Made by a program: the position numbers and the translations under genes
Assembly: GCA_017654855.1 (NCBI GenBank)
Contig: CM030332.1
Coordinates: 5,642,001-5,706,000 of the forward strand
DNA: 64,000 nt
Reading direction: 5' to 3'
Source: Podospora anserina
Lineage: Eukaryota
Notes under the pieces: model-generated
Seen by the model: only the letters and a program-made list of their open reading frames with translations
The model's database searches: none
Told to the model about the DNA's origin: nothing
Shown here: one piece after another, positions 63,368 to 64,000 of the stretch
Numbering within the stretch: the stretch's first letter is position 1
Layout: each line of letters starts with the position of its first letter

Positions 63368-64000
63368 ATGGCCCGAACAAAGCAAACTGCCCGGAAGTCA
63401 ACTGGAGGAAGGGCCCCACGGCGACGTCTACCATCAGGTATCATATGCATATATCCAGGTCCGAATACACAGATACGAAGGCCCACCACTACGCGTAAGG
63501 CACATTTGCTCAGGCCTCGACCGCTACCAACAGTAAAGCGTTTAAGTGAACAACAAGTTACCATGGCACCAACAAGACCGATGAAGCGGCAGAAGAGGAC
63601 CGGCACAACTCCAAGAAAACAATTACTGCCTTGGAATGGTTGTAGGAGAATGAGGCTGGAACCGCGCTACTCGCTGAGGCCTCGGCGGCAACAGACAGAA
63701 AAGCCTGAGAAGGACGAGCAGAACAGACGCAAAGCTAAACGTCAAGACCGGGCAACGAGAAGACGGAACAAAACCAAGAAAGTCTCTGCGGCCGTGACCC
63801 TTGTCACGCCCAAAGCCCGCACCACCCGGCGAACCCCTCTTGGGCTATTCTCCAGGCTTCCAAACGAGCTCATCTTCCAGATCATCTCATCTGACCTCGA
63901 CATACCAACACTCACCAATCTTCGCCGTGTGTGCAGGTTCTTCAAAAGCACCATCGACACAGGAGTCAAGGCCTATGCCGAATTGGCTCAGAAAGCTCCT
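63368..64000 (+). CDS. Histone H3 N-terminal-tail / F-box fusion protein (runs off the 3' edge of the window)
   Basis: Hand translation gives 211 stop-free codons: MARTKQTARKSTGGRAPRRRL, a basic linker, then LGLFSRLPNELIFQIISSDLDIPTLTNLRRVCRFFKSTID (F-box, ~63839-63958). Confidence 0.8.
   Translation, partial: MARTKQTARKSTGGRAPRRRLPSGIICIYPGPNTQIRRPTTTRKAHLLRPRPLPTVKRLSEQQVTMAPTRPMKRQKRTGTTPRKQLLPWNGCRRMRLEPRYSLRPRRQQTEKPEKDEQNRRKAKRQDRATRRRNKTKKVSAAVTLVTPKARTTRRTPLGLFSRLPNELIFQIISSDLDIPTLTNLRRVCRFFKSTIDTGVKAYAELAQKAP

Follow-up and report, generated by a model that had tools for sequence, protein, structure and literature searches.

The 5' part of an F-box protein gene of Podospora anserina encodes two segments that resemble the N-terminal tail of histone H3, namely a well-kept one at the N-terminus of the protein (copy 1) and a degenerate one at residues 66-86 (copy 2), and the same coding region carries an internal in-frame repeat. 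We put it at about an even chance that the 5' coding unit was once duplicated in tandem within the gene and that residues 66-86 are what decay has left of the head of its second unit. The gene lies at the end of the window, i.e. the whole stretch of 64,000 nucleotides that was analysed, with its main parts as follows.

63368..64000, + strand: 5' part (aa 1-211) of the F-box protein gene; the ORF runs off the window and is open at its 3' end
63368..63430, + strand: copy 1, H3-like head, residues 1-21, with 18/21 identities to H3 1-21 and a score of 94
63563..63625, + strand: copy 2, degenerate H3-like head, residues 66-86, MAPTRPMKRQKRTGTTPRKQL
63848..63958, + strand: F-box domain, aa 161-197, matched by Pfam PF12937 and PF00646; AlphaFold2 pLDDT 80-90

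The full-length protein has 408/409 aa. The protein P0008 (408 aa) equals the window ORF over all 211 aa, and P0001 of Podospora comata is 96% identical to it. The F-box domain scored above the curated cut-offs of Pfam, with 28.4 bits for PF12937 (F-box-like, cut-off 24.3) and 22.1 bits for PF00646 (F-box, cut-off 20.5), and the protein is thus a member of the F-box proteins. The histone fold (PF00125) was not found, since a Pfam scan of the protein with E up to 1 returned no histone family. In the AlphaFold2 model, which was built on 18 sequences, residues 1-113 have a pLDDT below 50 and are predicted to be disordered. The comparison of this model with the PDB by Foldseek gave no matches at E <=0.001, and the weak matches, with E of 0.8 or worse, were F-box proteins in Skp1 complexes. 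Beyond the window, at aa 201-408 of P0008, there is a C-terminal Cys-rich domain in which C230, C245, C248, C272 and C275 are invariant in 18 family members; neither a Pfam family nor a significant PDB fold match was found for it by the Pfam scan and Foldseek. The F-box protein family is apparently limited to Sordariales among the named records. The neighbours of the gene in the window encode a UPF0261 protein, a PEP-hydrolase-like protein and a Zn2Cys6 factor. In addition, the F-box protein diverges by 2-6% between species of the very close Podospora complex, and the H3-like head itself varies, by one substitution in P0004 and two in P0006; taken together, the divergence within such a close complex and the changes inside the head suggest fast evolution.

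P0002 begins with a copy of H3, whose first 21 residues served as the H3 reference. In copy 1, the Met and the following 14 residues are identical to H3, and PRRRL stands at the position of PRKQL of H3. Copy 2 aligns to H3 1-21 without gaps, with 10/21 identities and a BLOSUM62 score of 45, and the identities comprise the Met, A1, T3, R8, G13 and P16-R17-K18-Q19-L20. The alignment given in the preliminary description, with its ten identities, a Met of its own in copy 2 and an exact PRKQL that copy 1 has lost, was therefore reproduced. The replacements in copy 2 are R2->P, K4->R, K9->Q, S10->K and K14->T, so that the set of modifiable or reader-contacting residues of H3 (R2, K4, R8-K9-S10 and K14) is not intact there. 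Copy 2 has other residues in place of R2, K4, K9, S10 and K14 and hence is no H3 mimic today; and since, according to the AlphaFold2 prediction, it sits inside a disordered basic linker before the F-box, we infer that it is a remnant without mimic function. The K-R-Q-K-R cluster of copy 2 fits what we take to be the classical nuclear-import consensus, and judging from this motif a role in nuclear import could be envisaged.

The chief alternative to the duplication is that copy 2 is a chance look-alike in a K/R/T/P/Q-rich linker, with a duplication that covers the tails alone and a coincidental spacing of Met-Ala and PRKQL. We regard this as a lesser possibility, though one with appreciable weight. 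When residues 22-160 (139 aa, copy 1 excluded) were shuffled 50,000 times, any 21-mer with at least 10 identities appeared in 31 shuffles, and a score of at least 45 against H3 1-21 was reached in 6 of 50,000 composition-matched shuffles. Shuffling the 21-mer of copy 2 in place equalled the match in 7/200,000 cases by identities and in 1/200,000 by score, and PRKQL occurred in 301/200,000 shuffles. Among all six-frame 21-mers of the window (n=127,876), just two have at least nine identities to H3, both of them in the F-box ORF, which is the single ORF of the window to begin with an H3 tail, and the next best has eight. In 14 distant family members, the best H3-like 21-mers among residues 1-110 reach at most 7 identities and a score of at most 32. 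The shuffles anchored on H3 1-21, the in-place shuffles and the distant family members all speak against chance. However, the gapped local alignment of residues 66-160 with H3 1-135 has a score of 45 that was matched by 66/1000 shuffles and is not significant, as expected for a chance resemblance. The similarity also ends at residue 21, past which no H3 likeness was found in the ORF frame (the observed scores were equalled in 758/1000 and 472/1000 shuffles). Moreover, P-R words followed by K, R or Q stand at aa 17, 50, 82 and 105, and with several P-R-[KR]-Q-like words in the region, look-alikes could arise. The shuffle check proposed in the preliminary description was thus passed by the alignment anchored on H3 1-21 and failed by the gapped alignment with the whole of H3. 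Statistically, the match of copy 2 is real if the question is anchored on H3 1-21, and it spans no more than 21 residues.

The duplication itself was detected in the nucleotide sequence, where two repeat arms follow the two heads.

63508..63539, + strand: repeat arm 1, tail of unit 1, aa about 47-58, LLRPRPLPTVK after copy 1
63673..63704, + strand: repeat arm 2, tail of unit 2, aa about 102-113, SLRPRRQQTEK after copy 2

The two arms are identical at 25/32 nt, in frame and at an offset of 165 nt, which makes them the best-matching pair within the codons of aa 1-160; the match was reached by 0/300 and 0/500 codon shuffles, and a repeat finder also reports the pair. Tandem Repeats Finder, run with a minimum score of 30, gave no rows. 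The two head ATGs are 195 nt apart, so that heads and tails are collinear if a single 30-nt (10-codon) indel is allowed, and the protein alignment of residues 1-65 with residues 66-160 places an identical 10-residue gap. The position of copy 2 is thereby collinear with a proven repeat, which is a further point against chance. In addition, the global nucleotide alignment of unit 1 with unit 2 was equalled by none of 1000 codon and none of 1000 mononucleotide shuffles, with the signal carried by the repeat core. The 5' coding region therefore contains an internal tandem duplication, i.e. adjacent units that are alike in nucleotides beyond shuffles, and the earlier proposal that the sequence had been duplicated is supported: no shuffle reaches the in-frame repeat, which is collinear with the heads given the 30-nt indel. 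The heads taken alone are not significantly similar in nucleotides, a point in favour of chance for copy 2: the DNA of the two copies shares 31/63 bases, a value reached by 308/5000 codon shuffles, their third codon positions agree in 8/21, and head plus linker of unit 1 against unit 2 was reached by 133/1000 shuffles. Compared as proteins, the two units gave a score of 40 that is not significant (180/1000 and 269/1000 shuffles).

In the duplication reading, a unit of about 165-195 nt, running from an H3-like head through a short linker to an 'LRPR' tail, would have been duplicated, after which the two units would have decayed in complementary parts. The N-terminal unit would have retained the H3-like head while its tail drifted; the internal unit would have retained the tail, which is conserved in other genera, while its head drifted until Met-Ala, T3, R8, G13 and PRKQL were left. 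Copy 2 would then be translated as an internal stretch of the disordered basic linker before the F-box. The two heads are accordingly inferred to be paralogs, as is the timing of the duplication. The preliminary description had pictured an old eroded copy behind a newer one, a view that does not follow, because the units of a tandem duplication are of the same age and here have decayed in complementary parts. The duplication is favoured by the anchored H3 match, the in-frame repeat, the collinearity, the global alignment of the units and a shared ATG context, as well as by a single unit in Cercophora samala, the low pLDDT of residues 1-113 and unbroken contigs (see below). It is weakened by the shuffle results for the DNA of the heads (308/5000), for head plus linker (133/1000), for the unit proteins (180/1000) and for the gapped H3 alignment (66/1000).

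In the databases searched, orthologs were found just in the Podospora anserina species complex, Cercophora samala and Apiosordaria backusii. They form three clusters at 90% identity, and the case for the duplication is limited by there being just these three groups. The named Podospora orthologs are those of P. comata, P. pseudoanserina and P. pseudopauciseta (94-98% identity), and outside the complex there are P0012 of Cercophora samala (340 aa) and P0013 of Apiosordaria backusii (315 aa). An exhaustive search of representatives otherwise returned distant Sordariales F-box relatives with N-termini that are not H3-like, and no further ortholog was found when region 1-160 was searched among shorter proteins. 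Copy 1 has 17-19/21 identities to H3 in the other Podospora species and 13/21 in Cercophora samala, and among the family members scanned the H3-like head was seen in Podospora and Cercophora samala alone. The Cercophora samala head matches Podospora copy 1 at 16/21 residues, with R15 and PRRRL common to both.

Two segments of the window ORF are missing from orthologous models.

63470..63643, + strand: segment without counterpart in Cercophora samala, aa 35-92 (about 58 residues), from a MAFFT gap at columns 35-92 with which the pairwise alignment agrees
63593..63721, + strand: 43 codons (129 nt) absent from the Podospora model P0003, taking in the PRKQL half of copy 2

P0012 of Cercophora samala has one unit, in which residues 1-34, on the copy 1 side, run without a break into the tail that stands behind copy 2 in Podospora. 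The segment of aa 35-92 corresponds to the tail of unit 1 plus the head of unit 2 (copy 2). To judge from the aligned proteins, such a single unit would be the expected state either before the duplication or after a collapse between the repeats. If the duplication took place after the split from Cercophora, which has PRRRL in common with copy 1, the PRKQL of copy 2 would be a chance reversion of four base changes; if it took place before that split, a later loss of 58 residues in Cercophora would be needed. The tail in arm 2 is the part that is conserved in both Cercophora and Apiosordaria.

The P0003 model lacks 12/21 residues of copy 2, PRKQL among them, and it starts at residue 28, so that it is also without the H3-like head. 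An identical 6-nt word flanks the missing 129 nt in the window (63589-63594 and 63718-63723), suggesting a slippage deletion in P0003. Copy 2 is invariant in 4/4 full-length Podospora orthologs, which says little because the overall divergence is just 2-6%. Beyond the closest species, copy 2 was not found conserved in the Cercophora and Apiosordaria models. By MAFFT it is missing from the models of Cercophora samala and Apiosordaria backusii, with an ungapped match of 9/21 in Apiosordaria as an ambiguous alternative. The PRKQL that the preliminary description expected in orthologs is therefore present in 4/4 full-length Podospora proteins and absent, in the MAFFT alignment, from P0003, Cercophora and Apiosordaria. 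Selection on the mimic, which had been read from the presence of two copies, is not supported for copy 2, in view of the replacement of five key residues, its absence from the aligned Cercophora and Apiosordaria models and the 12/21 residues missing in P0003.

Another explanation is that copy 2 is the original N-terminus and the older head, and that the 65 codons before it, which hold the well-kept H3 head, were added later at the 5' end. The main evidence for it comes from Apiosordaria P0013, which starts with MAPVT and has the N-terminus MAPVTRRSRMKVYAFRPRKQQ. Without gaps, its first 21 residues find their best placement within Podospora 22-160 at residue 66, with 9/21 identities and a score of 34 (268/20,000 shuffles). 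In register with H3, the Apiosordaria N-terminus is weakly similar, with 7/21 identities and PRKQ at 17-20, values reached by 886 and 596/100,000 shuffles, and P3 and K11, at both of which H3 differs, are common to it and copy 2. However, the gapped alignment (score 78) and MAFFT both place Apiosordaria 6-60 on Podospora 93-149, leaving just MAPVT to match MAPT, and the PRKQQ of Apiosordaria has two possible partners in the alignment, copy 2 and RPRRQQ of the tail. The Apiosordaria model could also be shortened at its 5' end, and Cercophora has the copy 1 head and lacks copy 2. We therefore consider an original N-terminus at copy 2 unlikely. As regards the suggestion that some orthologs might start at this Met with a better-conserved tail, the Apiosordaria model does begin with MAPVT, at a place that is ambiguous between the alignments, and its N-terminus has just 7/21 identities to H3.

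The Met of copy 2 might also serve as a functional second start, reached by leaky scanning or by reinitiation after an upstream ORF, to give an isoform from Met66 without the H3 head. The upstream ORF is the following.

63322..63498, + strand: upstream ORF of 58 codons in another frame, from the ATG map; it overlaps the main ATG at 63368

Met66 has a strong context (gttaccATGgc), and both head ATGs share A-C-N-ATG-G-C. The first ATG after the stop of the upstream ORF (63498) is that at 63563, the Met of copy 2, and contigs begin at 63228-63302, upstream of the ATG at 63322. These contigs, from four runs of four studies that are guessed to be RNA, extend to 64000 with no joint. Because they cover the region without a joint, both heads appear to lie on one unspliced stretch; the contigs show neither transcript starts nor expression levels. 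An intron that would remove the region between the heads was considered and rejected, since its GT...AG pairs would break the frame and the contigs show no joint. Against a second start, the context is poor at the upstream ATG, with T at -3, and good at the main ATG, with A at -3 and G at +4, and 58 codons are long for an upstream ORF that allows translation reinitiation. An alternative start at Met66, as offered in the preliminary description, is thus unsupported, and we hold a functional second start to be quite improbable.

A frame +1 reading between the two copies was noted, in which HRY...RYQ...KLP occur at 63468-63572 (+ strand) in the order of H3 39-66 and at about its spacing. In the unanchored three-frame test, this reading, weakly like H3 39-69, scored 41 with the P0002 H3 (24/1000 shuffles), and the test gave 34 with the P0033 H3 (76/400). 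The anchored, frameshift-tolerant H3 extension was reached by 60/150 shuffles for unit 1, and unit 2 gave no extension (150/150). A frameshifted H3 remnant between the copies is therefore unsupported. The least probable explanation, with hardly any weight left to it, is that a 5' fragment of H3 was captured independently for a second time, from the hH3 gene of the host or its mRNA, and inserted behind the first, for although PRKQL is kept in copy 2 and missing from copy 1 and the weak other-frame reading lies between the copies, that reading fades with the other H3 reference, the anchored extension fails for both units, the tails behind the two heads are paralogous to each other and not to H3, and no histone gene was found within the 64-kb window.

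Known H3 mimics are mostly motifs of 4-6 residues resembling ARKS or ARTK. H3-tail mimics in non-histone proteins are described from viruses (PMC6028506; bioRxiv 10.1101/2021.11.10.468057) and as endogenous mimics (10.1101/2025.01.21.634156; 10.1101/2023.06.13.544862). The F-box protein resembles these systems in that a short disordered stretch copies the tail, here as the Met plus 14 exact residues of copy 1, and differs from them in that an F-box protein here has the mimic at its true N-terminus. Copy 2 lacks both the ARKS and the ARTK cores and does not qualify as such a mimic. In comparison with SCF F-box receptors (PF12937/PF00646), the protein shares an F-box above the Pfam cut-offs and weak Foldseek matches to Skp1-bound F-box proteins, whereas its H3-like head and its Cys-rich C-terminal domain without Pfam or PDB match set it apart. 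Histone H3 itself is resembled over the first 21 residues alone, and the histone fold is absent here. In the literature searched, no paper dealt with this gene, nor with an F-box protein that begins with an H3 tail.

Several H3-tail-like units in one protein were also seen in P0020, P0032 and P0035, which are 205-245 aa long, come from short metagenome or run contigs and have no Pfam domain. P0020 and P0032 carry four well-kept H3-tail repeats each, and multi-copy H3 tails thus exist elsewhere. These proteins may resemble the state that the heads of the F-box gene once had, while they differ from it in that all their repeats are well kept and an F-box is lacking.

For the origin of the mimic, the eroded copy 2 points to internal duplication and complementary decay and not to repeated capture; by itself, and judged from its residues, copy 2 would be an eroded remnant that gives no hint of having its own function. 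That just the copy at the free N-terminus stayed H3-like matches the prediction for a tail mimic that is read from a free end. The known cases of histone-tail mimicry come mainly from viruses and a small number of animal proteins. Putting the parts together, one may speculate that the protein is an SCF adaptor whose N-terminal H3 decoy recruits enzymes or readers of the H3 tail, or itself receives H3-like marks, that copy 2 is the fossil of a two-copy decoy comparable to P0020 and P0032, and that selection kept the copy with the free N-terminus; we think this joint reading rather doubtful at present. If it is true, the gene would keep a natural record of the birth, duplication and later pruning of a histone mimic within the genome of a eukaryote itself.
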